This document shows, one piece after another, positions 1-32,000 of a DNA stretch of 32,000 nt (within the stretch, counting starts at the first letter, position 1; each line of letters starts with the position of its first letter). The DNA lies in the NCBI GenBank assembly GCA_963528875.1, contig CAURWT010000002.1, positions 120,001 through 152,000 of the forward strand, in the 5' to 3' direction. The stretch comes from an uncultured Candidatus Saccharimonas sp. (lineage in GTDB: Bacteria > Patescibacteriota > Saccharimonadia > Saccharimonadales > Saccharimonadaceae). The notes under the pieces are model-generated. The model ran no database searches and was not told where the DNA came from. It saw only the letters and a list, made by a program, of their open reading frames with translations. The translations under genes and the position numbers were made by a program.

Positions 1-829
1 GTGAAATTTTATGAGTTCTAAAATATTCAATAGCTTTTTTAAAGTTAATAATTTGCCCTTCTGCGGAATCGGCTGTCGACATCCTCGCAAAGTAACTTAT
101 ACCTTCTACAGAAACTTCAACCTGTCGTAAACTAAGGGGCGGAATACGAATTTTCGAAACCTCTAGTCCTTGTTTGTTCGCAGCAGAAACTAGTTTTCCA
201 ATAAAGCTAAAAAAGCTACTGCTTGCAACATTTTTACCGTTAGAAACTATAGCACCACTATCATCAATTATATTTAGTGACGGTTTTTCAAAATTATTAA
301 CACTAAAAGATATACCTTCAGAATCTACAAAAAATTCTTTACTATCGACCAACCAAGAAGCAACAGGTTTTCGAAAATCAAGATAAATTTTATATGAGGT
401 TAAACCATTAAATTTAATATCCGAAATAGATAACACCTCTGGATAATCTTTTTGAAGACTTTCAAGTAAAGCATTTTTATTTAAATTTGACAAAATCCGT
501 TCACTCGGATTTATATTTAAATATTCTTCAACTGATTTTTCATATTTACTTAAATTTTGGCTTTTTGACTCATTTGAAACTACTGAAACCTTAGAAATAA
601 ACTGAAATAAAAATATAGAAATTAAACTTATAAAAATAGCTAAAATTATGAAAAAAGCACCTAGCTTTCTTCGGCGAATAACTAATTTTTGATTTTCTAA
701 ACGCTCAGAATGCTCTTTTTGATGCCGTGAAATTGTTTTTCCACGCCGAAAATCACCCTTCTCTTTTGAGCGTTCTTCTAGGATCTTTTCGCGCATTTCG
801 CGTCGAGTTAAGTTTTTTTCTTCTTTCAT
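1..829 (-). CDS. ftsQ: FtsQ/DivIB-like cell-division protein (3' end runs off the window)
   Basis: Absent from the ORF track because it is open at the window edge. My translation from the ATG (revcomp 827-829) reads MKEEKNLTRREMREKILEERSKEKGDFRRGK..LGAFFIILAIFISLISIFLFQFI.. That gives a basic cytoplasmic tail, one TM helix and an external domain. It sits directly after murG, the canonical ftsQ slot in a dcw cluster. Confidence 0.55.
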   Translation of the reverse strand, partial: MKEEKNLTRREMREKILEERSKEKGDFRRGKTISRHQKEHSERLENQKLVIRRRKLGAFFIILAIFISLISIFLFQFISKVSVVSNESKSQNLSKYEKSVEEYLNINPSERILSNLNKNALLESLQKDYPEVLSISDIKFNGLTSYKIYLDFRKPVASWLVDSKEFFVDSEGISFSVNNFEKPSLNIIDDSGAIVSNGKNVASSSFFSFIGKLVSAANKQGLEVSKIRIPPLSLRQVEVSVEGISYFARMSTADSAEGQIINFKKAIEYFRTHKIS

Positions 830-838
830 CTAACTATA

Positions 839-847
839 ATTATACCA
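839..847 (-). promoter_or_regulatory. Extended -10 promoter TGGTATAAT, 9 nt from the ftsQ-like ATG (leaderless type)
   Basis: The plus strand reads attatacca, which is TGGTATAAT on the minus strand. It lies in the 33-bp murG/ftsQ gap and there is no room for a Shine-Dalgarno. Confidence 0.6.
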
Positions 848-862
848 TAAGCTCAATATTTT

Positions 863-2020
863 TTATAGTTTCACAGCCTCAAAAATCATTTCTGCAACAT
901 CTTTAGCAGCATTAGGCTTAGCAAACTTACCAAATTCTTTACCAAGTTTAAGCATCTCTTCTGGATTTTCTAAAGTTCTCAAAATTTCATCTGAAAGGAT
1001 TTCTGGATTTTTTTCAATTTCATCGTCTGAAACAATCTTAACAGCATTAGATTTTTGATAAACCTGCGCATTTTTTAATTGATGTCCACCTGTTAATCTT
1101 GCGTTTGGAACAAGAATTGTTGGCTTGTGAAGCGCGGCAAGTTCAAGGTTGGAAGTTGCACCAGCCCGAGCAACAACCAAATCTGCAGCAGCTAAAAACT
1201 TCCACATATCTTTTGATACAAAACTTAACAAGTAAAAATCCTTCGAAAACCCCTCAGTTTTTCTCTTAAGTTCACTAAATTGAGATACGCCAGAAATTAG
1301 AACAATTTGAGCGGATTTTGAAAGCTCCCTGCCCTTTGAAACTACCGCATTGTTAAGCCGAGTTGCACCAAGACCACCACCAGTAACTAAAACAAGAGGC
1401 TTACTTTTCGAAAACCCGAGCTCAACCTTAAAATTATCTTGTTCTTTTTTACTATATTTTTTAAAATTTTCAAGTACCGGAATTCCAACGTAATTTGAAA
1501 TTTCTTTTGGATAATTATAAAATTCGAGTGGTGCGCCTGTTGCAATCCTTTTAGCAAATTTTGAAATAATACGATTAGCTAAACCTGGGTGAGCATCAGA
1601 ATCATGTATCACAATTGGAATTCTCAAAATCCAAGCGCTTATTCCAACAGGAACACAAACAAACCCACCTTTACAGAAAATAACATCTGGTCGCCAAAAA
1701 ATTAGTTTGAAAAAAGACTGAAAAATACCAGCAATATTTCGAAAAATATCTATAAGATTGCCAAAAACAACACTTGGAATTGTAAGATGTTGCCAAAAAG
1801 TTAAGTGATTGTAGCGGCGAAATTTCCCACTTGAAATTTTCGAAATTTTAACTCTTTCACCAAAAGAATCAGTCATTATTTTTTTAGCCTGTGGTGCAAA
1901 TTTTTTATCACACCAAAAATGTAATTCTACTTTTGGATTTTTCTTTAAAATTTCCTTAAAAACTGCCACGATTGGAACTACGTGACCGCCCGACCCGCCG
2001 CCGACTGCCAATATTTTCAT
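863..2020 (-). CDS. murG: UDP-GlcNAc:lipid I N-acetylglucosaminyltransferase MurG
   Basis: MKILAVGGGSGGHVVP.. glycine-rich N-terminus and a ..GATSNLELAAL..P.. C-domain in dcw context. Start trimmed from 2089 to the ATG at 2020, which is preceded by GGAGGAAGG. Confidence 0.9.
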   Translation of the reverse strand: MKILAVGGGSGGHVVPIVAVFKEILKKNPKVELHFWCDKKFAPQAKKIMTDSFGERVKISKISSGKFRRYNHLTFWQHLTIPSVVFGNLIDIFRNIAGIFQSFFKLIFWRPDVIFCKGGFVCVPVGISAWILRIPIVIHDSDAHPGLANRIISKFAKRIATGAPLEFYNYPKEISNYVGIPVLENFKKYSKKEQDNFKVELGFSKSKPLVLVTGGGLGATRLNNAVVSKGRELSKSAQIVLISGVSQFSELKRKTEGFSKDFYLLSFVSKDMWKFLAAADLVVARAGATSNLELAALHKPTILVPNARLTGGHQLKNAQVYQKSNAVKIVSDDEIEKNPEILSDEILRTLENPEEMLKLGKEFGKFAKPNAAKDVAEMIFEAVKL

Positions 2021-6926: not shown

Positions 6927-7823
6927 TTATTTTCTAATGCTCACTCGCAATTTTGCACTGCGGGCTCGCGGATTGTTAACATCTTCTTTTGCACCATTAA
7001 GCGGTTTTTTGGTAATTGTCTGAAATTTAGATTCCAAACCTTTTTTCGAATCTTCTTTGAAATAATTCTTCACTATTTTATCTTCAAGACTGTGAAAAGT
7101 TATAATTCCAACTCTTCCACCTGAATTTAATAGTTTCGGAAGCAATTTTAAAACCTCTTCAACTTGTTGAAGTTCATTATTTACCGCGATTCGAATCGCC
7201 TGAAAAGTGCGCGTTGCGGGGTGCGTTTTTTGCCAACCGCCTTTGTGCACGCTTAAAATTAAATCAGCCAGCTGCGTTGTGGTCTCAATTCTCTGCTTTT
7301 TTCGAACTTCTAAAATTTTCGAAACGATTCTTTCAGCAAAACCGCGCTTTTCTTCGCCAAATTCAATTAAAATTTGCAAAAGTTCGTTCTTGCTTGCGAA
7401 ATTCACAATATCTGCCGCTGTTTTTTCTTGAGCAGGATTCATTCGCATATCAAGTGGGCCATCTTTTCGAAAAGAAAATCCCCTTTCTGCAATATCTAAC
7501 TGAGGTGAAGAAACACCCAAATCTGCCAAAATTATATCAAATTTTTGACCTCTTTTTACCAATTCTTTTGCGACCGAAAGAAAATCTTTATGTAAAATCT
7601 CTACACCTTCATTTTTAAACCGTTGAAGCGTGCGAATTGCATTTTCATCTCTATCGACTAAAACCGAGTTTTCGAAATTCTCGGTTATACGCAAAAATTC
7701 GCCAGCGTGTCCTCCGTATCCTGCCGTAAGATCGAGATAACTTTCACCTCTCTTTGGCTGGATTTGTTGCAGACTTGCTTGCAGTAAAACTGGTATGTGA
7801 ACTGATTCTTCTGTGTAATTCAT
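6927..7823 (-). CDS. rsmH: 16S rRNA (cytosine1402-N4)-methyltransferase RsmH (MraW)
   Basis: HIPVLL.., YLDLTAGYGGHA, LADLGVSSPQLD and ..ITFHSLEDKIVK motifs. SD AGGTGG lies 10 nt upstream. Confidence 0.95.
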   Translation of the reverse strand: MNYTEESVHIPVLLQASLQQIQPKRGESYLDLTAGYGGHAGEFLRITENFENSVLVDRDENAIRTLQRFKNEGVEILHKDFLSVAKELVKRGQKFDIILADLGVSSPQLDIAERGFSFRKDGPLDMRMNPAQEKTAADIVNFASKNELLQILIEFGEEKRGFAERIVSKILEVRKKQRIETTTQLADLILSVHKGGWQKTHPATRTFQAIRIAVNNELQQVEEVLKLLPKLLNSGGRVGIITFHSLEDKIVKNYFKEDSKKGLESKFQTITKKPLNGAKEDVNNPRARSAKLRVSIRK

Positions 7824-8834: not shown

Positions 8835-8869
8835 AAACTAAAAGACTCTCGAATTTTCGAAAGCCTTTT
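8835..8869 (-). terminator. Rho-independent terminator of the helicase operon
   Basis: Minus-strand RNA reads GGCUUUCGA-AAAU-UCGAGAGUC (9 bp including G-U pairs) followed by UUUUAGUUUU. Confidence 0.5.
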
Positions 8870-8910: not shown

Positions 8911-10458
8911 TTATATAGCATCTTCACCAAAGAGTTTTTTTATGCGAGCTTCAATTGAACCTTTATGGCGACCGAGCTCTTTACTTAATTTAGCAATTAA
9001 ATCTGCGTCAATTTTTCCATTTGCAAAAACCATTTCTTGCAATTTCGAATCATCAACAAGTCTCCACGCACGATACGCATTTGGATATTCTTTCCGCATT
9101 TTTTCAAGCTTTTCAGCCCAAGTTGTTTTTGATGGTTGCACCTCAACAATTTCGCCCGCTTCACGCTTTTTAGCAACTTCTTTTAAGTGCGAAAAATGCT
9201 TTTCGGCTTTTAAGCTTTCATTTTTAAGTCTAAAATCAATCTTTTGCGCCTCTTCGCTAACCATCAAAGCGGTGCGGTTTATTCCAAGTAAATAGAGTTT
9301 ATCAAGAGAGCGAACACGAGAAAGCGCCACATACCCCATTCCTTCAGAAAAGGCTTTTCGAAGGTCGATTCGAGCGGCATCGAGTGTCATCCCTTGGCTT
9401 TTATGAACTGTAATTGCATATGCTAGTCGGAGTGGAATTTGCATAATACTTGCTCGCTTTTTTTCGCCATCACGCATTTCCCAAGTTTCTGGCGCCATTG
9501 TAATAATTTTACCATTTCGAAATTGAACAATCGGGTAATCTGTTAATCTTTCAAAATCAATAACTTCACCAATTGAACCGTTCACATATTGGCGGTTTTG
9601 GGCATTTTTTACCGCCATCACTAAAGCACCTTTTTTGAGTCGCAAGAGTTCTGGTGCAAGAACGGATTTCTGTAAAGTTTCAACGTAGTTTTTTGCACCA
9701 GTTGTGGTTTGCGCAAAATGAAACTCCTCGCCTTCGAGCTCGGCAAGCTTTTGCTCATTAATTTTATCAACATCGATATTAGTAGTGTGGAGTTCGGTTA
9801 AGTTTTTCAAAAAATCATCACTTTCAAAATTAGGCTCAATATCGATACGATCAAGCAAACTTTGAGCGTGTTTTCGGCGTAAATCATCCGCTCTAAGTGC
9901 GTTTAAAATTTCAGATAGTTCATCATTTTTTTGGCGGTGATTTTCCTCAAGATAGCAAATCGTAAATTCGGCAAGCTTCCAGGCGTTCGAATAAATTGCA
10001 AAACCACCAGTTCGCCCACCAGTTCGGTTAATTGGCGGTAGCTGAAAAAAATCACCACATAAAATTACCTGAATTCCACCAAAAGGTTTATCATTTTGGC
10101 GAATTGTGCGACAAATTTCTTCAACCATGTCTAGTCGAAAATCGTGCAACATAGAGATTTCGTCAATCACCAGAATATCTGTATTTTTAATAATTTCAGC
10201 CCGCGTTTTTGGGAATTTTTCAAAAAATTTTCTCGAAAGATAATCATAAATTCCAATTCCGCTCCAAGCGTGAATGGTGTTTCCTCCAAGATGAGTTGCC
10301 GCTAAACCAGTAGTGGCCGTAACGCTAACCTTTTTTCCAGAATTTTTTGCAAGCTTAATAAACTGATTAAGCGTGAAAGTTTTTCCGCTTCCTGCCGCAC
10401 CAGTTAAAAAAACATTTTCGCCTGAGAGCATAATCTCTAATGCTAACGCTTGCTTCAT
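8911..10458 (-). CDS. SF1B Pif1/RecD-family DNA helicase with a C-terminal HTH-like tail
   Basis: Walker A GAAGSGKTF, TATTGLAA, ILVIDEISM, ILCGDFFQLPP, YAITVHKSQGMTLD and YVALSRV motifs. The C-terminal ..NAYRAWRLVDDSKLQEM....IAKLSKELGRHKGSIEARIKKL tail is typical of bacterial Pif1-like helicases. Confidence 0.85.
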   Translation of the reverse strand: MKQALALEIMLSGENVFLTGAAGSGKTFTLNQFIKLAKNSGKKVSVTATTGLAATHLGGNTIHAWSGIGIYDYLSRKFFEKFPKTRAEIIKNTDILVIDEISMLHDFRLDMVEEICRTIRQNDKPFGGIQVILCGDFFQLPPINRTGGRTGGFAIYSNAWKLAEFTICYLEENHRQKNDELSEILNALRADDLRRKHAQSLLDRIDIEPNFESDDFLKNLTELHTTNIDVDKINEQKLAELEGEEFHFAQTTTGAKNYVETLQKSVLAPELLRLKKGALVMAVKNAQNRQYVNGSIGEVIDFERLTDYPIVQFRNGKIITMAPETWEMRDGEKKRASIMQIPLRLAYAITVHKSQGMTLDAARIDLRKAFSEGMGYVALSRVRSLDKLYLLGINRTALMVSEEAQKIDFRLKNESLKAEKHFSHLKEVAKKREAGEIVEVQPSKTTWAEKLEKMRKEYPNAYRAWRLVDDSKLQEMVFANGKIDADLIAKLSKELGRHKGSIEARIKKLFGEDAI

Positions 10459-10467
10459 TTTCGAAAA

Positions 10468-11565
10468 CTACTCGCTTCCGATCATTCGTGGCGGTTCACC
10501 TTCTGGGCCGTCGAGCAACTTTTTGCTTTTAATTTCATAACGGCGACCAGTGATTTCGCTCAAGATGTAATCTTCATTAATTAAATTCACGAACATATCT
10601 AAATCGTTACTATCCATAATAATGATTGCACCGTTGTCGTCCGTCATTAATTCAAGCTGCATTTCATCGGCGTATTCAACCACTTTTTCTTGCGAAATTT
10701 CACCAATTTCATCCATTTTTTGTAATTTCGTAGCAGCTTTTTTATGCTCGCGAACCAAAGTTTGCAAATCTAAACCATCAGGAAAACTCAATTTATACTT
10801 TCTTTCGATTTCCAAAACTTTTTTATCAGCTAAAACTTGTTTTTTATAATCGTAATTAAAGAGTTTTTCAAATTTTCCTTGATTGAAAATAAAAATATCA
10901 TTATTTACGATCAAAACTTGATTATCTGGCTGGATTTTTAAACCAAATTCAGGCTCAAATGCACCAAATTTACCATTTCGAAATTCCCAAGCTGTTGCTC
11001 CGCGCAAAACCTGCCCTTGCATAATTTGTTTAGCAACATAAAATTTCTCGCCTTTCGAATTTGTAAACCTTGCCAAAATTCCTTTAATCCGCTTAAAATC
11101 ATGTTCGTTTTCATTAAATTCCACAATGTCGGAATATTGCGTTTCAATTATATTTAATAGCGCATTAGCGTGTTGAACTTTTTGTAGTTCAGTTTTTAAA
11201 AGCACATCTTTGCCCGCGCCACCATCCATTTCATAGTCTCGCACGCTCAAACCAGTTCCTGCACCCATATTTACGAAATTAATCATATCAAACAAAAACA
11301 ACGGCTTAATTTGCGAGTTCAATTCGCTTGAAAAACTAGTTGTAAAAGGCACAAAATTTTTATTAAATAAGAAAAATTCTACATCAAGCTCATTTTTGAT
11401 TCCATCAGTCAAATTTGCCCACTGAAAAATATCAGTTGATTCATCTTTTTTCGAATTTTCAGCTTCTTCAAAATTTTGTTCTTCATTTAAAATTTCAGCC
11501 TTATTTTCTGTCAGGTTTTCAGTATTTTTAATCTCAGCGTTTTCAGTTCTAATATCTTCTTCCAT
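10468..11565 (-). CDS. Hypothetical protein with an acidic disordered N-terminus; possibly KwaB/DUF4868-like (unverified)
   Basis: 365-aa ORF ending 10 bp before the helicase start. Residues 1-45 are Glu/Asn-rich. No catalytic motif recognised. The central/C-terminal pattern (..FYVAKQI..VLIVNNDIFIFNQGKFEKLFNYDYKK..) recalls DUF4868 from memory only. Confidence 0.7.
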   Translation of the reverse strand: MEEDIRTENAEIKNTENLTENKAEILNEEQNFEEAENSKKDESTDIFQWANLTDGIKNELDVEFFLFNKNFVPFTTSFSSELNSQIKPLFLFDMINFVNMGAGTGLSVRDYEMDGGAGKDVLLKTELQKVQHANALLNIIETQYSDIVEFNENEHDFKRIKGILARFTNSKGEKFYVAKQIMQGQVLRGATAWEFRNGKFGAFEPEFGLKIQPDNQVLIVNNDIFIFNQGKFEKLFNYDYKKQVLADKKVLEIERKYKLSFPDGLDLQTLVREHKKAATKLQKMDEIGEISQEKVVEYADEMQLELMTDDNGAIIIMDSNDLDMFVNLINEDYILSEITGRRYEIKSKKLLDGPEGEPPRMIGSE

Positions 11566-11573
11566 ATAGTTCT

Positions 11574-11582
11574 ATTATACCA
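11574..11582 (-). promoter_or_regulatory. Extended -10 TGGTATAAT, 8 nt from the ATG of the 365-aa gene (leaderless type)
   Basis: The minus strand reads TGGTATAAT-AGAACTAT-ATGGAAGAAG. Confidence 0.6.
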
Positions 11583-11604
11583 CAGCCTAGACAGCAAGTC
11601 CAAG
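11574..11604 (-). repeat. Promoter-module direct repeat, copy 1
   Basis: Plus strand reads attataccacagcctagacagcaagtccaag. It differs from copy 2 at two bases plus a 1-nt indel. Confidence 0.8.
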
Positions 11605-11674
11605 ACAACAAAACTAATATGCGACACCTTTATTAAACCTAAAAAATAATCATAGTTGCATATATACTATGATT

Positions 11675-11704
11675 ATTATACCACAGCTCAGACAGCAGTC
11701 CAAG
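11675..11704 (-). repeat. Promoter-module direct repeat, copy 2 (probably a decayed duplicate)
   Basis: Plus strand reads attataccacagctcagacagcagtccaag. On the minus strand it is followed by an 8-bp hairpin (11649-11673) plus a U-tract, and only a 3-codon ORF. Confidence 0.8.
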
Positions 11705-11735
11705 TAACCATTATAAACTATACCTATAACTCATC

Positions 11736-11760
11736 AAAACGCCCTTTTATAGGGCGTTTT
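11736..11760 (-). terminator. Terminator hairpin after the PHP-ATPase gene
   Basis: AAAACGCCC-ttttata-GGGCGTTTT, a perfect 9-bp stem with A/T runs on both sides, 13 bp after the stop codon. Confidence 0.7.
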
Positions 11761-11772
11761 GACTTTGATAGA

Positions 11773-14358
11773 TTATAATTCTTCTTGTAAGTCATATTTA
11801 CTTTCTCGTTTAAGGAAAGCTATTCGACCTCCTTCGAGAATATCACAAACGTGTTCTTTGATGCTATATCTCTGCAGTAAAAATTGGCTTTTCTCGTCCT
11901 TGACTATACTTTCCAAGGCACCACTTACATAATCGAAGACTTTACCATTTTTATTTTTGGAAACATCCGATTCTTGATTTGCAACAATAACATTCTCACA
12001 ATCTCCTGCAACAACAATATTAGGGTTATGAGTAACAAGAATAATCTGACGATTTAATTTCGTCTTTTTTATATAAGCCGTTAATTCATTATATATAGCA
12101 CGATTATCCAGACTATCTTCTGGCTGGTCAATTAAGACTGGAATTTTACTATCTGAGAAATCTAAAATCAGTTTCAGAACGATAAATGCTTTCTTGCCGG
12201 GTGACATTTGTTCAAATTTATCCTTCTGATATTCGATGTCAAAACGATAAGAATAAAAATTTTTGCCGAAAAAATACTCAATATGAGATAACTTATCTCT
12301 ATTACCATTAAAAGTTAAGGTGTCGTCTTCAAAAATCTTATCAACTACGGTATCGAAATTCTCTTCCAAATTATCAATAAAATCCTGTTTAGCGTGGCCT
12401 CTCGCATTGATATAATCAAACTCAGAATGTAAATCATTTAATGAAAAATTGATAGTTATCTTTAAACCATCTTTCTCTGATATGTCAAAAGAATCTTGCA
12501 GTTCGGTTCTAAAAATTGAGTATTGTTTATACTTTAGGATAATATCATTTTTAATTCTATTTTCTTTATCAGTAAGGGATTTTAATCTACTATTAAATTT
12601 ATCAATCTTAGATAGAATTTCATTTTCCGACTTAATTGACGCATCTAGCTTGACAACTTCATTATTACTCTCTAAATATTGAGTACACTTCTGAAATAAC
12701 TTGTCATTCTTTATAGTATCTATCTTTTCCTCAATACTATGAATTGTTTTAGTTACGTTAGACTTAAGTTTTTCTACTTTATCTTTAAATTCTTTCCGTA
12801 TATTTTCATTCAAAGATTCAACGATAATGTCCAACTCATTTTGGAGAAATTCAGAAGGTTCATCAAATCTATCACAACGAAGCTCTACATCCGAGATAAA
12901 TAATTCAGCTATATAATTCAAATCAGACTGATGAGAGGTTTTTTTCAATATATTTATTTTTAACTCCTCATTCATTTTATCGAATGATTCTCGCTCAATA
13001 TCGGTTATAGAACCATTTTTTAATAATTTTTGCTTTTTGTTTTCATAGATTTTAATTCTATCTAAAGTCGCCTGTCTTTCTTCTTCAGGCTTAACTAATT
13101 CATTCTGTGAACGCTTAGTCTCCTTATACTCATGAAATAAATGTCGAATTTCACTTTGTAAGTTACTACACTTTTGGTCATATATTTTTATTGCTGAATC
13201 CATTCCCTTGGATTGTATTATATCTCCAACCAAATCCTTCAGTTTGCTATTATCTTTAGCTAAAGAAAACATATACTCTTGAGGTATGTAATGAATTTTT
13301 CTAGAATCATCCTCTTTGCCGTCTCTCCAAACAACACGAAAATTATCCAAGTCTTTAAAATAATAGCTTCCCTCATCTATGCTATTCCCTAATTTTTTAG
13401 CAATCGAATTTAATAATGTTGATTTTCCTGTAGACCGACCTCCGATAATAGTATTTAGATTTTCAGATAGATAAATTTCTTCTCCTGGATAACCAATTCT
13501 ATCAATCACAAGCTCATCTTTTTCAAGTAATGGCTTTTCTTTTGATAAACTAATACGATATTCAGGTTCATATTTTATCTGTCTTAATCCATCGAAGGTT
13601 AGATCAGCCTTTATCCAAGAATACTTCATTCCTATTTGCTCCAATGAATGAGCGTCTGAAGATTGGAGTAAGGGTTTAATATATTTTGGATGATTCAGCC
13701 AGTACTCTCTATCTTTGAAAGTATTATCATGAGAACATTTAGTATCTTGACAGTCATCGGGATTATCGCAGCTAGAATGAAGTATGAAGTCTGAATTTCG
13801 ACAAACATCTTCATAGATAGAACTAATTTTCACTCTCGCATTTCCGTGCCCCCTCGACAAAAATCCTTTTAAATATCTGCCATTTAATTCTTCATCGCCT
13901 TCCAGAGTAGATATAAGGCTATTAAAAGGGACACTTGCCGAATTGTCGATTTCACTCTTTGTCAACCTATTAAAGGATTTATCAGTATTACCAATTTTTG
14001 CCTTTAAATTGGCTAATAAATTTTTGATAATTTGATTTTCTATACTATTGTCAAAAATAACATGATAATCAAAAAACTGATTTGAGTTATTCGTATTAGT
14101 GAGTCTAACCTCAAGGTTTAAAAATGTAACAATACCTGCAGAATTTAGCTTATCCTTCAATATAAAATCTTCATCTTTAAAATTGAAATAATTAGTTAAA
14201 CCAACTGCTGAAATTCCCTCATCCTTAAGTTTCTTGATAAACTGTTCAATATCGGGACTACCGTCTGCCAAATGTTCAAAATTATTATTCAATATCGTAT
14301 ATGGTGAATGTATATGTAAATCCCATTTTCTAAATTCCGAACCTCTATTAACTGTCAT
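11773..14358 (-). CDS. PHP-domain phosphoesterase fused to a Rad50/SbcC-like ABC ATPase; PplA-like (Gao_Ppl) / TrlF-like putative defence protein
   Basis: N-terminal PHP signatures (RKWDLHIHSPYT, ..SSDAHSLEQIG). Walker A IIGGRSTGKSTLLN. About 250 aa of coiled coil. Then SPGKKAFIVL.., Walker B PVLIDQPEDSLD and H-loop LVTHNPN. Start set to the ATG at 14358, preceded by GGAGGTTATT. The in-frame ATG at 14370 is an alternative. Confidence 0.85.
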   Translation of the reverse strand: MTVNRGSEFRKWDLHIHSPYTILNNNFEHLADGSPDIEQFIKKLKDEGISAVGLTNYFNFKDEDFILKDKLNSAGIVTFLNLEVRLTNTNNSNQFFDYHVIFDNSIENQIIKNLLANLKAKIGNTDKSFNRLTKSEIDNSASVPFNSLISTLEGDEELNGRYLKGFLSRGHGNARVKISSIYEDVCRNSDFILHSSCDNPDDCQDTKCSHDNTFKDREYWLNHPKYIKPLLQSSDAHSLEQIGMKYSWIKADLTFDGLRQIKYEPEYRISLSKEKPLLEKDELVIDRIGYPGEEIYLSENLNTIIGGRSTGKSTLLNSIAKKLGNSIDEGSYYFKDLDNFRVVWRDGKEDDSRKIHYIPQEYMFSLAKDNSKLKDLVGDIIQSKGMDSAIKIYDQKCSNLQSEIRHLFHEYKETKRSQNELVKPEEERQATLDRIKIYENKKQKLLKNGSITDIERESFDKMNEELKINILKKTSHQSDLNYIAELFISDVELRCDRFDEPSEFLQNELDIIVESLNENIRKEFKDKVEKLKSNVTKTIHSIEEKIDTIKNDKLFQKCTQYLESNNEVVKLDASIKSENEILSKIDKFNSRLKSLTDKENRIKNDIILKYKQYSIFRTELQDSFDISEKDGLKITINFSLNDLHSEFDYINARGHAKQDFIDNLEENFDTVVDKIFEDDTLTFNGNRDKLSHIEYFFGKNFYSYRFDIEYQKDKFEQMSPGKKAFIVLKLILDFSDSKIPVLIDQPEDSLDNRAIYNELTAYIKKTKLNRQIILVTHNPNIVVAGDCENVIVANQESDVSKNKNGKVFDYVSGALESIVKDEKSQFLLQRYSIKEHVCDILEGGRIAFLKRESKYDLQEEL

Positions 14359-18984: not shown

Positions 18985-18989
18985 AAATA

Positions 18990-20222: not shown

Positions 20223-20250
20223 CAATATTTTTTCGAAAACAAGCCCCTTT

Positions 20251-21282
20251 CTATATTTTTAGATATTTTCTTGTTGCCGTAAATGCCGAGACAACACCAA
20301 TAAACGAACCAACAACTATCAGTCCCAGAACAACCAAAAATCCATAAATTTGCAAGAATGAAATTACTGGCGAAATGATAATTCCATAAGCCTCGAGCCG
20401 AGATTTCGAAAGAAAAATTATAGTATAGCCAATTATTGAAGCTAGAATTGCTGCAATTGTTCCGCAAATTATAGCTTCAACCAAAAATGGCCCAGCAATA
20501 AAACTCTTATTAGCACCGATCAATTTCATCATATAAATCTCTTCTCGACGGTTAAAAATAGCCATTCGAATTGTATTAAAAATGATTAAACTAGCAATGA
20601 TTACAAAAATTGAGCCAGCTAAAATTCCAACTTTTTCAGCAAAATTAATTGTATTTGATATATTTTTAATAATCTCATTTCGATCGCTCGCATATGTTGG
20701 CGGATGATCTGGATCGAGATTCGATTTAATCAACTTATTATTTTCAACAAGATTTTTTAGCTCGGTTGAATTAGAAATATCCACAAGTTTAACATTGAAA
20801 ATTCCAAAAAATTCATTATTCGATTCAATTAAGGCTTTTCGAATATCCGCATCAGCCGAATTTTTTCGAGCAAATCTATCACGTGCCTCTTGTGGTGAAG
20901 TATATGTTATATCTGTAACTGAAGGTAAATCTTTAATTGCTTTTTGCATCTTTAAAACATCAGAATTTAAAACACCTTTTTTAAGGTAGATAGACATATC
21001 AACTTTATTTTTGATGTCATCAACTGTATCCATCAAAATTGAACGCGCAAGGAGTGAACCAAAAATAATAACCAAAGTAACAGTCATCACAGCAGTCGCA
21101 GCAACTGAAAGCCAAGCATTTCGAATAAAGCTATTTGCACCATATTTCGTAATTCGCCAAAGAGTTAAAGTTTTGCGGCGGCGCTGTTTCTGTTGCATAA
21201 TAATTTTTGAATTTTGTTTTTTTCTACCTTGTTGCACTTGAGAGCCTTTAATTTTATGATGTTTTAGATTTTCCTCTCTCAT
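20251..21282 (-). CDS. ftsX: Cell-division ABC transporter permease-like protein FtsX
   Basis: Basic N-terminus, TM1, a large extracytoplasmic loop and three C-terminal TMs (..MKLIGANKSFIAGPFLVEA..). The start overlaps the ftsE stop (TAATG). Confidence 0.85.
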   Translation of the reverse strand: MREENLKHHKIKGSQVQQGRKKQNSKIIMQQKQRRRKTLTLWRITKYGANSFIRNAWLSVAATAVMTVTLVIIFGSLLARSILMDTVDDIKNKVDMSIYLKKGVLNSDVLKMQKAIKDLPSVTDITYTSPQEARDRFARKNSADADIRKALIESNNEFFGIFNVKLVDISNSTELKNLVENNKLIKSNLDPDHPPTYASDRNEIIKNISNTINFAEKVGILAGSIFVIIASLIIFNTIRMAIFNRREEIYMMKLIGANKSFIAGPFLVEAIICGTIAAILASIIGYTIIFLSKSRLEAYGIIISPVISFLQIYGFLVVLGLIVVGSFIGVVSAFTATRKYLKI

Positions 21283-21965
21283 TATTGTCTATACTCCCCT
21301 TGCGATTGGTCGTGGGTAATTTTTCCACCATTTAAGGTAATTACACGACGTTTAAGTTTATTTACAATTTCAACATTGTGTGTAGTTAGAACAACCGTTG
21401 TTCCGTAGTTGTTAATTTTTTCAAGCAATCTAATAATATCCCAACTGTGCTTTGGGTCAAGATTCCCCGTTGGTTCATCAGCAATTAGAATTTTTGGCTG
21501 GCGAGCAATTGCGCGGGCGATTGCCACGCGTTGTCTTTCACCACCACTTAACTGGTGCGGAAAATTTCCCTCTTTTCCTTCAAGGCCAACAAGTTTAATA
21601 ACTTTCGGAACAGTCGCTTTAATCTCATGATTTGTCATTCCGGCAATTTCAAGCGCAAAAGCTACATTTTCGAAAACAGTTCGATTTGGCAAAAGCTTAA
21701 AATCTTGAAAAATCACACCAATTCGGCGCCGCAAAAGTGGAACATCCTTATCTCGCAATTTATCATAATCGATTCCACCAACAACAATTTTACCGCTGGT
21801 TTGTTTTTCTTCACGAGTGAGCATTTTTAAAAGTGAGGATTTCCCCGCACCACTCGTTCCAACCAAAATAACAAACTCTTTTGGCTTAATATGAAGGCTA
21901 ACCCTGTTAATCGCAGGAGTTTTTGAATTACCATAAACTTTTGTCACACGATCTAATAATATCAT
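21282..21965 (-). CDS. ftsE: Cell-division ATP-binding protein FtsE
   Basis: [28 protein letters not shown] and [12 protein letters not shown] motifs. A GTG at 21968 is also possible as the start. Confidence 0.95.
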
Positions 21966-23431: not shown

Positions 23432-24780
23432 TAAATCTCGCTCGATTTTACGCGAATTTGCGAGGCGTCATCTCGATTTCGAACGCTCACCAAGCCATCA
23501 CCCTCAATTGTGTCAAAATCAATCACAACAACTTTTGGCACACCAATTTCATCGGCCTTGGCGTAAACTTTTCCAACTTTTCCACTCAAATCAAATTCGA
23601 CATTTTTGTATTTTTGGCGAAGTTCAAGATAGATTTCTCGTGCTTTTTCAACCAAAGCTTCTTTGTTTTTAAGAAGTGGCGCCACAATAATTTTTGTTGG
23701 AGCAAGATTTTCAGGTAATGCCAAAAAAATGCGAGTTTTACCATTAGTTTCAACTTCGCGATAAGCATTCGAAAGAACCGCCATCAAAAGCCGCTCAACA
23801 CCAAAACTTGGCTCAATTACGTGAGGAATGAACTTTTTACGAGTTTGTTTATTGGTGTATTCCATACTTTTACCGCTCACTCGCTGAATATTCGCAAGAT
23901 CAAAATCAGTGCGATAAGCAATCCCCATCAATTCTTCTTTACCGATTGGGTAATTAAATTCAAAATCAACAGTACGCTTTGAATAATGCGCGCGGTCTTC
24001 TTCTGGAACTTCAAGCTCATATAGCGAACTTTGTGACAAGACCATTTTTTCAGTTAAGAATTCTCGAACTAAATCAAGCAATTTTTCAAATTCAGCCTCC
24101 CAATTCTCAGGATTTACGAAATATTCAATCTCCATTTGCTCAAACTCACGAGAACGAAAAACAAAATCCCGAGGTGAAATCTCATTTCGAAAGGCTTTTC
24201 CTTGTTGCGCGAGGCCAAATGGCAAGCTTGGATAGAACGAATCAACAACATTTTTGTAATTAGTAAAAATTCCCTGAGCAGTTTCTGGTCGAAGATATGC
24301 AGTTGAATTTTCATTCACCACAGCACCAACATTAGTTTGAAACATCATATTGAAACTTCGAACTTCACTAAGCTCATTGCCTTTTGGTGATTTCAAGCCT
24401 TGCTCACGGATAATTTCAGTGATTTTCTCGTTTGAAAGTCCTTCTGCTTCAATTCCAACATCTTTTAAAAGATGATCAGCACGATATCGCTCGCCTGTTT
24501 TTAAATCTTCTACCAAAGGGTCGGCGAAAGTTGCAGCATGGCCACTCGCTTGCCAAACTTTTGGATTCATAATAATTGCAGCATCAACACCAAACATATC
24601 TTCACGATTTTCAACAAAAAATTCCCACCACTCGTTCATGATTTTACGTTTCAAAGCTAGCCCGAGTGGGCCGTAGTCCCAAGTTCCGCGCATTCCGCCA
24701 TAAACTTCACTACCTTGCCAAATAAAACCGCGCCGTTTAGCAAGGCTCACAATTTTATCCATCAAATCTTCGTTCTTCAT
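23431..24780 (-). CDS. glyQS: Glycine--tRNA ligase (dimeric class II GlyQS type)
   Basis: ..RGFIWQGSEVYGGMRGTWDYGPLG.., ..YLRPETAQGIF.., ..GKAFRNEISPR.. and ..PHVIEPSFGVERL.. motifs. SD GGAGG. Confidence 0.95.
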   Translation of the reverse strand: MKNEDLMDKIVSLAKRRGFIWQGSEVYGGMRGTWDYGPLGLALKRKIMNEWWEFFVENREDMFGVDAAIIMNPKVWQASGHAATFADPLVEDLKTGERYRADHLLKDVGIEAEGLSNEKITEIIREQGLKSPKGNELSEVRSFNMMFQTNVGAVVNENSTAYLRPETAQGIFTNYKNVVDSFYPSLPFGLAQQGKAFRNEISPRDFVFRSREFEQMEIEYFVNPENWEAEFEKLLDLVREFLTEKMVLSQSSLYELEVPEEDRAHYSKRTVDFEFNYPIGKEELMGIAYRTDFDLANIQRVSGKSMEYTNKQTRKKFIPHVIEPSFGVERLLMAVLSNAYREVETNGKTRIFLALPENLAPTKIIVAPLLKNKEALVEKAREIYLELRQKYKNVEFDLSGKVGKVYAKADEIGVPKVVVIDFDTIEGDGLVSVRNRDDASQIRVKSSEI

Positions 24781-24805
24781 TTTTCCTCCGTATAACCTTT
24801 TAACT

Positions 24806-24814
24806 ATTATACCA
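24806..24814 (-). promoter_or_regulatory. Extended -10 TGGTATAAT promoter for glyQS (short leader containing GGAGG)
   Basis: The minus strand reads TGGTATAAT-agttaaaaggttatacGGAGGaaaa-ATG. Confidence 0.6.
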
Positions 24815-24846
24815 AAAAAGCTCCCGTTTTTCGAGAGCTTTTTGTT
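24814..24846 (-). terminator. Terminator hairpin after the surface-protein gene
   Basis: AAAAAGCTCCCG-ttttt-CGAGAGCTTTTT: an 8-bp stem with one mismatch, flanked by A and T runs. Confidence 0.6.
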
Positions 24847-24861
24847 TAAATTGCTATAAAA

Positions 24862-26166
24862 TTAGATTTTTATTTTTGCCAATTTCTTGCGAAAAACTAC
24901 TGCAGTAGTTACGCCCAAAATAGCAAAAGCTAGAATAATGAAATTTTGAGATTTTTCAAAACCAGTGTTTGGAGCTTGAACTTTCCCTTCTGAAGGCTTT
25001 TCAGCTTTTGGCGTCTCAACAGCTGGTTGCGGTTGAGCTGGAGTTGGTGCAGGAGCAGGTTTTTGTGGTTTTGCCTCAGGCCTACGGATTTTGGCATAGG
25101 TTTCTACGTTACTTCCAAAAATATCTGCAGTATCGTTAAAAACTCTTTTATCAATTACGCTTCCATCTGGCGCAATTAGCTCAGTAGTCTGCTTAACATC
25201 GCTAATCTTCCCATTTTTAATACTTGAACCATCTACCACTTTGACTGAAGAAAACCAACCCCGATAAACTCCATCTGTAGCTGGCATATCTTTCAATACC
25301 TCCAAGACTACTTCATCCTCAGAACGGGAAATAACTTTCAATTCCATACCCGGGCCACCAGCAAAATATACACCATATTTATTCACTGGAGTTGAAGCAA
25401 AGATACTTTCACGCATTCTCGTAAACTGTACAGTTGAGCCGATAGGATGAGTTTTATCGTCAAAACGGAGTGAAGAGTCTTTGTGCATAGTAACCTTAAG
25501 CTTAGAACCAGCCTTAATAGCGTTTTTTCCGTATTGTACTATAGTAGGATTAAATGAGAAAACTCCATTATTAGAATTTAATTGTGTTACACTACCCCCA
25601 ACAGCAGTTCTAGTTGCATTTAGCAAAGGTTGTTTAGTTAGTTTAACATCTTCACCTTTTAAAGTAGTGCTACCAATAATTTTAGTTTCTACAATAACGT
25701 CACGATTCACATATGAGAAATAATTGGCATTATTGTTAGAAATAGATGTTTTAAAATCAGCATATTTTTCAATATTCTTATTGAAAACAATTTTTCCCTG
25801 CCAAATAGTAGCTCCTGGTTTAGCATTTTCATCATTGCGAACAACAGATTGATAGTTTAAGTCATGACCGTCACTATACTTCTTATCAACCAATATCTCA
25901 CCAATTTTATCGCCTTTATAATTAAGATCTACTTTCCATCCAGGAATCACAGACACATTCTCAGCACGAAAAGTTGCCCAGTCCCCTTCTTTAACATTCT
26001 GGCCAGAAATATCAATAGACCACTCGCGCCCGCTGCTCTTAATACTCTTAGGTTCAATCTTTAACCGACTCGTAATATCCTCAGCAGCAAAGGCCGAAGA
26101 ACCAAAGCTAACTATCGAAAATAACGCAACAAGAATAAAAATTGTTATTTTACTTCGAAAATTCAT
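24862..26166 (-). CDS. Secreted cell-surface protein with a sortase-type C-terminal sorting signal
   Basis: Signal peptide (ITIFILVALFSIVSFGSSAFA), a Pro-rich stalk (PEAKPQKPAPAPTPAQPQPAVETPKAEKP), then APNTG + hydrophobic helix + RKKLAKIKI. SD GGGAGA. Confidence 0.7.
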   Translation of the reverse strand: MNFRSKITIFILVALFSIVSFGSSAFAAEDITSRLKIEPKSIKSSGREWSIDISGQNVKEGDWATFRAENVSVIPGWKVDLNYKGDKIGEILVDKKYSDGHDLNYQSVVRNDENAKPGATIWQGKIVFNKNIEKYADFKTSISNNNANYFSYVNRDVIVETKIIGSTTLKGEDVKLTKQPLLNATRTAVGGSVTQLNSNNGVFSFNPTIVQYGKNAIKAGSKLKVTMHKDSSLRFDDKTHPIGSTVQFTRMRESIFASTPVNKYGVYFAGGPGMELKVISRSEDEVVLEVLKDMPATDGVYRGWFSSVKVVDGSSIKNGKISDVKQTTELIAPDGSVIDKRVFNDTADIFGSNVETYAKIRRPEAKPQKPAPAPTPAQPQPAVETPKAEKPSEGKVQAPNTGFEKSQNFIILAFAILGVTTAVVFRKKLAKIKI

Positions 26167-28048: not shown

Positions 28049-28723
28049 CTAATCCATTTTTAGAGTGCTTAAAACATTTTCGTTCAAGACGTTGTTGTAA
28101 GTGTCAGCATCGGTTCGAATCATCAAAGTTTTACTATTCAATTTAAAATAATAAGCTGTTCCACGAATTCGATTATTCTTCTCTAGTCCAGGGAATAACC
28201 CTGCAATTTTTGTTGCTGGATATCCATTAACCGTTACGGCTTCAGAAGAAAGCTCACCTTTTTTAATAGCTTCGTTAAATTCTTTAAGAACTTCATCCAC
28301 GCTCTTCTCATAAATAGCTACGCGCAAACCGAAACGCTGAGTATCTTTGCCGTCTTTTGGAACTGGTGGCACTGTATCTGGATAGAAATAAGAGAAGAAC
28401 CCCTTTCGATCAGAACCATTAGATTCAACATATTGATTCCAAAATGTTGGATAACTAAAAGTTACCTTTCCTAAATCTTCTGGAGCACGAAATTCTTTAA
28501 CAGTTTTTCGTCGCTCTTCATTATATTTCTTTTCATCATCTTCTTGCTGTTTTCGTTTTCCTTCAGCAACTTGTAAGTCAATTTTTCCTTCAACATCTGT
28601 TTTTACATTGTTATATTCAATATAAGCCCAAATCCCAAATGAACCAGCACCAGCAAAACCGATGCTCAACAGAATAATTGCGATTGTTGAACCTTTAACT
28701 GCACCTTTTTTGAATCTATTCAT
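28049..28723 (-). CDS. Hypothetical membrane-anchored extracytoplasmic protein
   Basis: The track ORF extends to 28855 but that part overlaps the tRNA. Trimmed to the ATG at 28723 (MNRFKKGAVKGSTIAIILLSIGFAGAG..), 7 nt from a TATAAT. No family recognised. Confidence 0.6.
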   Translation of the reverse strand: MNRFKKGAVKGSTIAIILLSIGFAGAGSFGIWAYIEYNNVKTDVEGKIDLQVAEGKRKQQEDDEKKYNEERRKTVKEFRAPEDLGKVTFSYPTFWNQYVESNGSDRKGFFSYFYPDTVPPVPKDGKDTQRFGLRVAIYEKSVDEVLKEFNEAIKKGELSSEAVTVNGYPATKIAGLFPGLEKNNRIRGTAYYFKLNSKTLMIRTDADTYNNVLNENVLSTLKMD

Positions 28724-28730
28724 ACCTACC

Positions 28731-28736
28731 ATTATA
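28731..28736 (-). promoter_or_regulatory. -10 TATAAT, 7 nt from the ATG at 28723 (leaderless type)
   Basis: The minus strand reads AAGTATAAT-GGTAGGT-ATGAAT. There is no TG extension. Confidence 0.4.
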
Positions 28737-28820
28737 CTTATGTTTTTAAATTTTTCAAGTGCTTTTCGAAACTTTATTTTAAAAAATAAAAAACCGCCAA
28801 AGCGGAATTTATCAAAAAAT

Positions 28821-28896
28821 TGGTGGCTCCTCCCAGACTTGAACTGGGGACACAAGGCTCTTCAGGCCTCTGCTCTACCAACTGAGCTAAAGAGCC
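28821..28896 (-). tRNA. tRNA-Phe (anticodon GAA), CCA encoded
   Basis: The minus strand reads GGCTCTTTAGCTCAGTTGGTAGAGCAGAGGCCTGAAGAGCCTTGTGTCCCCAGTTCAAGTCTGGGAGGAGCCACCA. This folds as a 76-nt cloverleaf (7/4/5/5-bp stems) with anticodon loop CTGAAGA. Confidence 0.92.
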
Positions 28897-30525: not shown

Positions 30526-31857
30526 TAAAAGGTTTACATTTTCAACAAATTGTTCACCGCGATCAACATAACTTTTAAACATATCAAAACTGGCATGAGC
30601 AGGGCTTAAAATAATCACATCACCACTTTTTGCGTTTTCGAAAGCGGTTTTTACAACTTCTTGCATATTTGTTTTTGTGCCTAAATTTATAAACCGCTCG
30701 AATCCGCTTGATATCAATTTCTGGGCTAGTTTTTCAGATTCTGCCCCCATTAAAATTACCTTTCGAAGCTCTTGCTCTGGCATTTTTGCAATTTTTCCAA
30801 TCAGTTCACTTAGATCGGCGCCTTTATTGCTTCCACCAAGAATTAGAATTTTTGGCTTTTCGAAAGAATTTAGTGCAGCAATCGCACTACCCGGTGTGGT
30901 TGCAATGGAATCATCATAAAATCGCACACCTTCAAACTTACGAACAAATTTTAACCGATGTGGTAAACCTGTAAATTTCGAAAGCCCCTCTCGCCAAAAA
31001 TCGAAGATTTCCTCAATTTCGAAACCCTCTTCACGCAAAAAATCAAAGGTTGCAATCATTGCAGCACAAGCATTTTTTTGATTGTGTTCGCCTGGAATTT
31101 TCAAAATATCAGTTTCGAAGAGAACTTCATCTCCCCATAAAAAATGATCTTCTTGAATATGGGCTAAATTGTAGTTCTGAAAAGGCTGAAGTTCCGCCTT
31201 GAGTTGATTTTTTAAGTTTTCAACATTTTTTAAAACTATTGGATTTTCAGCATTAAAAATAAAAAAATCATTCTCGGTTTGATTTTTAGCAATATTCATT
31301 TTTGCCGCCACATAATCTTCAAAATCATCATGAACGTCAAGGTGATCAACTTCAAGATTATTTAAAATTGCAATATGCGGCGATTTTTGAGCATCCCAAA
31401 GCTGAAAACTGCTGAGTTCATAAATCACGGCATCATCTTTTTGAATTTTCGAAAGCTCATTAAGTGCTGGTAAGCCAATATTGCCAACAAGATGAATACT
31501 TAAACCAACTGCACGCAAAATTTCAGCAATAAAACTCGACACAGTTCCCTTGCCTTTTGAGCCAGTTACACCAATAATTGGTGCTGGGCATTTTTCGAAG
31601 AATAAATTTGTAACAGATGTAATTTTAGTATTTTTCGGCAAACGGCTAGGATTAACTGCGGGTGTTCGCACGATCAAATCTGCTTGAATTTTTGAAAAAT
31701 CATGAAAATCACCAAAGAATTTAACGCCACTTGGTAGCTCAATTTTACTTTTTGGGTTTTCGTCATAAATTTCAAAAGTATTATTTTGATCAATACTTTT
31801 GAAATAATCATAAGCACTTTTTGCCTCGAGCCCAAAACCAATTAATGCAATTTTCAT
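30523..31857 (-). CDS. murD: UDP-N-acetylmuramoylalanine--D-glutamate ligase MurD
   Basis: Rossmann-like N-terminus (KIALIGFGLEAKS), P-loop GVTGSKGKGT, ..HRLKFV.., and C-terminal ..SPAHASFDMFKSYVDRGEQF typical of MurD. SD GGAGA. Confidence 0.85.
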   Translation of the reverse strand: MKIALIGFGLEAKSAYDYFKSIDQNNTFEIYDENPKSKIELPSGVKFFGDFHDFSKIQADLIVRTPAVNPSRLPKNTKITSVTNLFFEKCPAPIIGVTGSKGKGTVSSFIAEILRAVGLSIHLVGNIGLPALNELSKIQKDDAVIYELSSFQLWDAQKSPHIAILNNLEVDHLDVHDDFEDYVAAKMNIAKNQTENDFFIFNAENPIVLKNVENLKNQLKAELQPFQNYNLAHIQEDHFLWGDEVLFETDILKIPGEHNQKNACAAMIATFDFLREEGFEIEEIFDFWREGLSKFTGLPHRLKFVRKFEGVRFYDDSIATTPGSAIAALNSFEKPKILILGGSNKGADLSELIGKIAKMPEQELRKVILMGAESEKLAQKLISSGFERFINLGTKTNMQEVVKTAFENAKSGDVIILSPAHASFDMFKSYVDRGEQFVENVNLL

Positions 31858-31910
31858 ATTTCTCCTTTTAGTTTAGATTATCTTTATTTTATTTTAGCAT
31901 ATTTCATGCA

Positions 31911-31948
31911 AAAAAACACCCCTTCCATTTTTTTGGAAGAGTGTTTTT
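31911..31948 (-). terminator. Rho-independent terminator of the gene entering from the right edge
   Basis: AAAAAACAC-CC-CTTCC(A) ttttttt GGAAG-A-GTGTTTTT. On the minus strand the stem is followed by UUUUUUU. Confidence 0.65.
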
Positions 31949-31952
31949 ACAT

Positions 31953-32000
31953 TTAGTTAGCACCAAATTTTCTGTTTGATTTAGTTGGATCGCTCGCAGT
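31953..32000 (-). CDS. 3' end of an unidentified gene (..TASDPTKSNRKFGAN*)
   Basis: Open frame from the window edge to a TAA at 31953-31955, directly followed by the terminator. Too short to identify. Confidence 0.3.
   Translation of the reverse strand, partial: TASDPTKSNRKFGAN

Follow-up and report, generated by a model that had tools for sequence, protein, structure and literature searches.

TTCGAA as a lineage-specific, hyper-abundant palindrome in a clade of Saccharibacteria: a possible HIP1-like self signature kept by a weak fixation bias

Introduction

Short motifs that are hyper-abundant in a genome are few, and include the highly iterated palindrome (HIP1) of cyanobacteria as well as the uptake signal sequences (USS) of Pasteurellaceae and the DNA uptake sequences (DUS) of Neisseriaceae. 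HIP1 has an origin that has been under debate for 30 years, in part owing to the phylum-wide and ancient character of the motif. Here, we describe a related phenomenon in the Saccharibacteria, which are tiny epibionts, centered on the palindromic hexamer TTCGAA in a 32,000-bp stretch of DNA (the window) from an uncultured Candidatus Saccharimonas sp. (GCA_963528875.1, contig CAURWT010000002.1, positions 120,001 to 152,000). The excess of TTCGAA is real, is specific to one lineage, acts at the level of DNA, and is absent from newly arrived DNA. Our reading, favored with slightly less than even confidence, is that the hexamer is a HIP1- or USS-like "self" signature maintained by a weak fixation bias for the whole hexamer, with a protein of the restriction-modification (R-M) type as its presumed agent.

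The closest described parallel is HIP1 (GCGATCGC), likewise a short palindrome that is hyper-abundant in all reading frames and in spacers. HIP1 is lineage-restricted, with different palindromes possible in different lineages, and its sequence is typical of methyltransferase or Type II R-M specificities (PMC4390886). Work has also shown that HIP abundance tracks cognate methyltransferases, and Elhai's model explains it through a methyl-directed repair ratchet (PMC4390886). Orthologous HIP1 sites are conserved beyond control motifs, and the constituent codons are retained better within the motif than elsewhere (PMC5861425); the same qualitative result was obtained here for TTCGAA. In addition, methylated HIP1 stimulates natural transformation (bioRxiv 10.1101/2024.09.10.611283; 10.64898/2026.06.24.733823). 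The two motifs also differ. HIP1 is a GC-rich octamer of cyanobacteria that is enriched 15–300-fold across a phylum, whereas the motif described here is an AT-rich hexamer or octamer, enriched 4–10-fold in a genus-level clade of Patescibacteria (Saccharibacteria). Moreover, cognate methyltransferases are known for HIP1, while none occurs in the 48 kb read here. A further trait of HIP1 is periodic spacing over a long range (10–90 kb).

A second parallel is provided by USS and DUS, which reach at least about 1 copy per kb, are independent of reading frame, and are under-represented in recently acquired DNA. They bend the protein sequences in which they lie (PMC2817400), occur in naturally competent bacteria, and have been explained by a weak fixation bias termed molecular drive. 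These elements are 9–12 nt in length, asymmetric, and tolerant of mismatches, in contrast to the strict 6-bp palindrome seen here, and their uptake specificity has been proven by experiment, while TTCGAA is known from sequence alone.

TTCGAA is also the recognition sequence of BstBI and AsuII (REBASE specificities). As a Type IIP target shared by these enzymes and NspV, it is recognized as a hexamer in an all-or-none fashion. Genomes that host an active Type II R-M system avoid its target, and a Microcystis with an NspV system carries only 1 site per 209 kb (PMC2779907); the clade described here is instead enriched 4-fold. Finally, the Dcm/Vsr system acting on CCWGG in Escherichia coli offers a case in which a palindromic methylation site is over-represented along with a precursor one transition away, with gains that run through T-to-C changes at the cytosine position. 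Dcm/Vsr does not predict the protection of outer positions observed for TTCGAA, and no Vsr or Dcm homolog occurs in the DNA read.

Abundance of TTCGAA in the Window

A total of 96 TTCGAA sites occur in the window, or 3.0 per kb, which makes the hexamer the seventh most frequent in DNA of 35% G+C. The first-pass annotation had put the number at about 90 by eye and the number expected from composition at about ten; the latter agrees with the mononucleotide expectation of ~10. The field of sites, three examples illustrating the reading frames, and two examples in spacers are as follows.

1–32000, no strand: field of 96 TTCGAA sites, 43 of them as TTTCGAAA, at 3.0 per kb in coding and non-coding DNA
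7671–7676, minus strand: TTCGAA in frame TTC-GAA (Phe-Glu) in rsmH
7466–7471, minus strand: TTCGAA in frame xTT-CGA-A (Phe-Arg-Lys) in rsmH
7318–7323, minus strand: TTCGAA in frame xxT-TCG-AA (Val-Ser-Lys) in rsmH
8840–8869, minus strand: terminator-like hairpin (-15.7 kcal/mol, z = -4.6) with TTTCGAAA (8855–8862) in the stem and apex
16282–16323, no strand: hairpin (-13.6 kcal/mol, z = -6.4) with TTTCGAAA (16297–16304) at its apex, between the convergent rpmA and response-regulator genes

Shuffles of the window that preserve dinucleotides yielded 22.9±4.8 sites with a maximum of 37, so that the hexamer is enriched about 4-fold. The octamer TTTCGAAA is enriched about 10-fold, with 43 copies against a dinucleotide expectation of 4.4. 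It holds 45% of the sites, somewhat less than the "more than half" first proposed. A T precedes the hexamer (position -1) at 72 of the 96 sites and an A follows it (position +6) at 54, and these favored flanks together amount to 65% against a baseline of ~44%.

The excess also survives stricter null models. In the 29 coding sequences (CDS) defined in the window and cross-checked with the gene calls of the source contig, 87 sites were counted, as compared with 30.5±4.7 when synonymous codons were permuted within each gene. A shuffle that keeps the protein, the codons, and every dinucleotide raised the expectation to 57.2±4.4 (maximum 72) and still did not reproduce the count. Only the maximal-order Markov expectation came near the observed value (170 against 192, both strands counted), and this is because the sub-words of TTCGAA are themselves enriched. 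All three reading frames are used, with 16 sites as TTC-GAA, 33 as xTT-CGA-A, and 38 as xxT-TCG-AA. The nine remaining sites were scored as non-coding, although two of them (positions 153 and 370) really lie in a gene that runs off the start of the window. The sites in spacers that had been assigned to terminator loops (8856 and 16298) do fold as terminator-like stem-loops.

The sequence was extended along the same 375-kb metagenome scaffold (scaffold coordinate = window coordinate + 271,133) to 48.3 kb, in which 149 sites occur (3.08/kb). Its 3.9 kb of intergenic DNA, at only 27% G+C, contains 8 sites against 1.1 expected, an excess of about 7-fold. The gene content of the region fits Saccharibacteria: a dcw cluster is present, along with a TrbL-like gene of type IV secretion and a gene for a PcsB-like CHAP hydrolase. 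Together with the use of all frames, the survival of the codon and dinucleotide nulls, and the greater conservation of codons inside the motif described below, the intergenic excess bears out the proposal that the pressure acts on DNA and not on protein.

The enrichment is strictly confined to the hexamer. Neighbors that differ by one mismatch occur at 0.4–1.4 times expectation, no NTCGAN word other than TTCGAA is enriched, and the likely precursors TTTGAA and TTCAAA are slightly depleted (0.76–0.86 of expectation). With regard to spacing, the coefficient of variation is ~0.95 once two inserts (see below) are removed. Pairs of sites less than 50 bp apart number 12 in the core of this genome, against 22.4 expected from random placement (P = 0.004), and the deviation has the same direction in six of six other loci from relatives. 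Regular spacing was thus rejected, as only this weak short-range deficit is seen. An origin from a mobile element or miniature inverted-repeat transposable element was likewise rejected, given that no information exists outside of the T at -1 and the A at +6. A strand- or orientation-dependent distribution of the Chi or KOPS type does not apply, since the palindrome is its own reverse complement. Remnants of tRNA T-loops (GTTCGAATC) were also considered and discarded, as the flanks mismatch and the window's tRNA-Phe lacks TTCGAA. This tRNA-Phe(GAA), at 28821–28896, overlaps the upstream extension of a mechanically predicted ORF (28049–28855); the gene call on the contig starts at 28732, so that the TTG-initiated extension is spurious.

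Phylogenetic Extent of the Enrichment

Intermediate relatives were sought by means of glycyl-tRNA synthetase (GlyRS) in GTDB genomes and JGI metagenomes, and the faster-evolving FtsI was used to set the boundary of the clade. The GlyRS scans yielded relatives at no more than 71% identity plus one clade member, the protein being too conserved for such a search. Loci compared here carry L numbers. Relatives whose GlyRS is 92–98% identical have 82–95% DNA identity and fall into at least three groups at species level; each of them carries 2.7–3.6 sites/kb. Beyond the window genome, the clade includes seven members at 82–95% DNA identity and one at ~75%, with 2.7–4.2 sites/kb overall; the most distant, with 78% FtsI identity, has 4.15 sites/kb.

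Sister lineages are a different matter. In L179 and L180, which share the gene order and have FtsI 62% and 59% identical and a G+C of 34–37%, TTCGAA occurs 14 times against 12.2 expected and 8 times against 9.7 expected, respectively. Because these syntenic sisters of equal G+C are un-enriched, the enrichment is not a consequence of base composition and arose on one branch, at roughly genus depth. No enrichment was found in any of 80 GTDB species representatives or 79 JGI metagenome loci of other Saccharibacteria and Patescibacteria. In fact, the hexamer is generally avoided there: pooled over 2.4 Mb of these loci, the ratio of observed to expected is 0.54, and among the 100 loci where 5 or more sites are expected, 30 are significantly depleted. 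Extreme cases include L134 (0 sites against 18.8 expected) and L151 (1 against 17.4). Such general avoidance indicates that restriction specific for TTCGAA is common across the phylum, and the clade thus shows the opposite of the usual avoidance of restriction sites, as had been suggested from the window. Among at least 120 viral-contig loci listed with TTTCGAAA pairs, none reached a genome-like density.

Two other observations were made in these comparisons. L063 (CAZLZS010000006.1, 21 kb, 52% G+C), from another Saccharibacteria lineage, is enriched for a different palindrome of restriction type, CGGCCG, with 50 copies against 14.7±3.5 in dinucleotide shuffles and 45 against 23.2±4.1 in synonymous shuffles. 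Weaker enrichment of CGGCCG occurs in L050 and L027. The CGGCCG excess of L063 suggests that "alternate" iterated palindromes exist within the phylum. Separately, L179 carries a run of small ORFs downstream of its dcw cluster (16900–21698), ending in a REP_ORF2-G2P (rolling-circle initiator-like) gene; this run may be an integrated small element.

Conservation, Gains, and Losses

Evolutionary tests were based on BLAST alignments of two genomic regions. Window sites are kept in other clade species in 47–61% of cases, as compared with 31–39% for other hexamers in the same frames, 27–33% for one-mismatch neighbors, and 22–30% for CG-containing hexamers. Turnover is nevertheless considerable, as only 15 of 96 aligned positions at which one or more of seven strains has the motif show it in all of them. 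At sites that vary among strains, the other allele is overwhelmingly TTTGAA (73) or TTCAAA (68). Conservation extends to the codons themselves: TCG is retained in 61–64% of cases inside the motif and 29–30% outside, CGA is likewise retained more often inside, and a TTT-GAA corresponds to TTC-GAA in a relative in 33–44% of cases, against 10% for TTT to TTC elsewhere.

Against a background matched for base and codon position, the ratios of observed to expected substitutions across T-T-C-G-A-A are 0.48, 0.72, 0.96, 0.95, 0.70, and 0.81, and close to 1 in the flanks. The synonymous outer positions of the motif are protected as well. The flanking T and A, while enriched, are not conserved. When changes were polarized by parsimony among three lineages, with the other two agreeing, gains by central transitions numbered 16 against 7.5 expected (ratio 2.13, p = 0.005). 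Losses at the four outer bases numbered 45 against 65.1 (ratio 0.69, p = 0.005), whereas those at the central CpG were not significantly different from expectation (46 against 40.1, ratio 1.15). An unpolarized test of precursor conversion, which had given a 2.2–4-fold excess in all classes, was discarded because decayed motifs among the precursors mimic the signal.

A weak directional force on the whole hexamer maintains the motif. Its scaled advantage would be of order 1, a rough estimate that combines the polarized ratios with the 4–5-fold enrichment under a standard weak-selection fixation model. The relatively fast turnover of the CpG is compatible with a modified cytosine or with a half-decayed site that is tolerated.

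Effects on Codons and Proteins

The first-pass annotation had stated that TCG and CGA are normally rare codons in AT-rich genomes. This does not hold for CGA here, which is the most used or a leading Arg codon (25–33%) in the clade as well as in the two sisters that lack the enrichment, where its share is 25–27% at 34–37% G+C. Since this unusual preference is also present in the sisters, it is older than the motif. TCG, on the other hand, is raised in the clade, where it makes up 16–28% of Ser codons as compared with 11–13% in the sisters.

Peptide contexts compatible with the motif are encoded as TTCGAA in 34–72% of cases in the clade and 0–17% in the sisters. The contexts themselves have also multiplied. 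When ten core genes common to these genomes were aligned and identical codon positions compared, 84 compatible contexts were counted in the window genome, as compared with 54 and 41 in the sisters (p = 0.002 and p = 2e-6). Many sites lie where one amino acid has replaced another, for example Arg for Lys or Gln, or Ser for any residue. Thus, codon choice and some amino acids as well are bent towards TTCGAA.

Site-Free Stretches and Accessory DNA

Three long gaps between sites had been described as deserts marking accessory DNA, and all three were found at the positions reported. The gaps and the variable DNA in them are listed here.

11456–15090, no strand: desert 1, 3,635 bp without a site
11583–14625, minus strand: strain-specific insert of 3,043 bp, G+C 31%, no TTCGAA
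17786–19752, no strand: desert 2, 1,967 bp without a site, composed of an insert and core DNA poor in sites (the ctpA 5' end and the CHAP-encoding half of the PcsB-like gene)
18045–18947, minus strand: strain-specific insert of 903 bp, no TTCGAA, with a gene (18057–18785) for a 242-aa AAA_15/AAA_21 ATPase (Pfam)
24363–26153, no strand: desert 3, 1,791 bp without a site, spanning the 5' end of glyQS and the surface-protein gene; not statistically unusual
24862–26166, minus strand: variable gene for a sortase-type surface protein, not present in L091, L092, and L148

Desert 1 alone is statistically compelling, since gaps of its length are expected only ~1e-3 times at the local density. Its insert is absent from L091–L094, L096, L148, and L177 and carries a gene (11773–14358) of the TrlF family, which combines PHP and AAA-like ATPase domains (NCBIfam NF045780, E = 2.7e-145); the ATPase is related to the Ppl anti-phage protein (NCBIfam). 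The TrlF gene lacks sites altogether over its 2,586 bp (P = 2e-4), and its G+C is the lowest among the large genes. In desert 2, the 903-bp insert has no alignment in any of six relatives, whereas the ~1.07 kb of core DNA that remains has 0–1 sites in every strain. Desert 3 carries no information, because the core's largest gap is ordinary under random placement: with the two inserts removed, it is 1,797 bp in 44 kb, against a simulated median maximum of 1,578 bp. The surface-protein gene in it is dispensable, being present in four of six relatives, and its orthologs in L093–L096 contain 2 sites.

The inserts are un-enriched and not depleted: their own composition predicts 1.7 and 0.4 sites, and they have 0. 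In the seven strains compared, 3.0–3.6 sites/kb were counted in DNA that aligns in all other species, and 0.4–0.75/kb in the larger unaligned stretches. This contrast, and the restriction of the enrichment to one clade, agree with the proposal of a host signature. That the signature is missing from accessory DNA is therefore right in principle, and well supported for one and a half of the three deserts: for desert 1, for part of desert 2, and not for desert 3, which is within chance. Beyond the end of the window, a TrbL_3 (type IV secretion) gene contains a 1.6-kb site-free gap at window coordinates 32898–34515; the gene has 3 sites in 2.5 kb (P = 0.04), and relatives have 2–3 in the same stretch.

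The location of desert 1 is of interest in its own right. The slot (window 11566–14785) lies between Trm11-like and KwaB-like genes, holds TrlF in the window strain and an OLD-like TOPRIM/AAA_15 gene in L095 (20000–21350), and is empty in five other strains. In view of these two occupants, it is a variable hot spot for defense genes. At window 8911–11565, the KwaB-like gene (Pfam KwaB, E = 5e-11) stands directly upstream of a gene for a PIF1-type helicase, and no KwaA partner is seen. The two genes are kept together in every lineage examined, L177–L180 with the non-enriched sisters included, and for that reason seem to belong to the core and not to a mobile Kiwa defense system.

Proposed Mechanism

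A weak, genome-wide fixation bias for the complete hexamer keeps the density at about 3 sites per kb. Through it, TTTGAA and TTCAAA become TTCGAA at about two times the rate of equivalent changes in other places, and the four outer bases are lost about 0.7 times as often as matched bases. Recent arrivals, namely the TrlF insert and the small ATPase insert, stand at chance level, the bias having had no time to act on them. The agent is probably a recognition protein of the R-M type, strict for the hexamer, with a DNA methyltransferase of BstBI/AsuII specificity, lacking an active cognate nuclease, as the most likely candidate. Several lines of evidence point to this kind of agent: TTCGAA has the specificity of BstBI, AsuII, and NspV; avoidance across the phylum indicates that systems of this kind are in circulation; the hexamer is recognized in full or not at all; and the CpG behaves as relatively hypermutable. 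An active cognate nuclease is an unlikely selective agent because the clade is enriched 4-fold. Methylation at TTCGAA has been detected in a thermophilic community, in a genome assembled from its metagenome (bioRxiv 10.64898/2026.06.24.734251).

Two routes from such a protein to the bias can be envisaged, and the data do not separate them. One is a methyl-directed repair ratchet that would favor the (methylated) sites; the other is a preferred uptake or recombination of tagged DNA from conspecifics. The latter is suggested by the effect of methylated HIP1 on transformation and by the natural competence demonstrated in Saccharibacteria, although in other members than this clade (PMC10633639). 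In its most specific form, TTCGAA would be a methylation-dependent self tag for conspecific uptake or recombination, domesticated from a BstBI-type R-M system in a naturally competent genus of Saccharibacteria; this is possible but rather doubtful.

Several points weigh against a HIP1- or USS-like signature with an R-M-type agent. No DNA methyltransferase, Vsr- or MutH-like nuclease, or uptake receptor was found in the 48 kb or in the same two regions of the relatives. A 408-aa methyltransferase-like gene at 14786–16012 was considered as the TTCGAA methyltransferase and rejected: its best matches are Trm11/TIGR01177 tRNA methyltransferases, its match to Pfam N6_N4_Mtase is below threshold, and the gene, a neighbor of rpmA, belongs to the conserved core. 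At 4-fold for the hexamer and ~10-fold for the octamer, the enrichment is also much milder than the 15–300-fold of HIP1. Known uptake sequences are longer than TTCGAA and non-palindromic. The event counts are small (16 gains and ~90 losses) and depend on parsimony and BLAST alignments in two regions. Finally, selection for a structural binding site predicts the same static and evolutionary pattern.

Alternative Explanations

The alternative nearest to the above is a classical uptake sequence that acts without methylation, where a competence receptor prefers fragments bearing TTCGAA, and uptake with recombination spreads the sites by molecular drive. Such a system would account for a fixation bias that covers the whole hexamer, the lack of the motif in recently acquired DNA, a proteome shift of the kind described for USS and DUS (PMC2817400), and the shortage of pairs less than 50 bp apart (12 against 22.4, P = 0.004, with the same direction in the six other loci), in bacteria whose competence has been demonstrated (PMC10633639). 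It is unlikely, however, as known uptake sequences have 9–12 nt, are not palindromic, and have enriched near-matches, while one-mismatch variants of TTCGAA are at or below expectation. A hexamer also discriminates little, the central CpG is not protected from loss even though it is the most informative part in AT-rich DNA, and no receptor was identified in the 48 kb and the two regions of the relatives. Still less probable is a clade-specific, dimeric DNA-binding protein with a role in the nucleoid, segregation, or replication control, with selection acting on site density. A palindrome suits a dimer, the sites are conserved above background with their outer bases protected, and Xu et al. favored a role in chromosome structure for HIP1 (PMC5861425). 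Yet ~3 sites per kb, or ~2,500 per genome (assuming ~0.8 Mb), is far denser than known nucleoid or segregation sites, and all-or-none specificity with no enrichment of near-cognates would be unusual. Moreover, the excess of gains at arbitrary synonymous positions suggests drive over positional function, and spacing shows the weak short-range deficit only.

The sites might instead be functionless by-products of very-short-patch (VSP) repair, in which a TTCGAA cytosine methyltransferase and a T:G nuclease convert TTTGAA and TTCAAA. The alternative alleles are overwhelmingly these two words, central-transition gains occur at 2.1 times expectation, and both precursors are depleted to 0.76–0.86, all as such repair predicts. 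What makes it very improbable is the outer bases, as T:G repair predicts no protection of them, and they are lost less often than expected (0.69, p = 0.005), have substitution ratios of 0.48–0.81, and are protected even at synonymous positions. Synonymous transitions alone yield much of the C/T dominance, and neither Vsr nor a C5-methyltransferase was seen in the DNA read. As for the absence of any special feature, with base composition, codon usage, and dipeptide content explaining the excess, the favored use of CGA in non-enriched sisters and the close agreement of the maximal-order Markov expectation (170 against 192, both strands) might seem to speak for it. This explanation has next to no chance in the face of 87 coding sites against 30.5±4.7 and 57.2±4.4 in the codon shuffles, the 7-fold intergenic excess, and sisters with the same genes and equal G+C that are un-enriched.

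Significance

No report was found of a hyper-abundant palindrome, be it TTCGAA or another, in the Saccharibacteria or elsewhere in the Patescibacteria, and the literature on TTCGAA over-representation and on Saccharibacteria methylomes returned nothing relevant. Relative to HIP1, USS, and DUS, the new aspects are the phylum, the AT-rich and restriction-site-like hexamer, the milder enrichment, and the shallow, sharp distribution. The last of these makes for a young and sharply bounded case, present down to ~75% DNA identity and absent in syntenic sisters of equal G+C, and hundreds of strains are already in public metagenomes. Owing to the recent and bounded origin, the un-enriched sisters, and the many strains, the causal factor, be it a methyltransferase, a repair nuclease, or an uptake receptor, should be findable by gene presence and absence, and polymorphism data could test selection against drive. 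On the practical side, TTCGAA offers an inexpensive way to recognize recently acquired DNA in genomes of this clade, and should it promote transformation in the manner of methylated HIP1, Saccharibacteria genetics could benefit too. Should the self-tag reading be true, this would be the first uptake-sequence or HIP-like system in the candidate phyla radiation.

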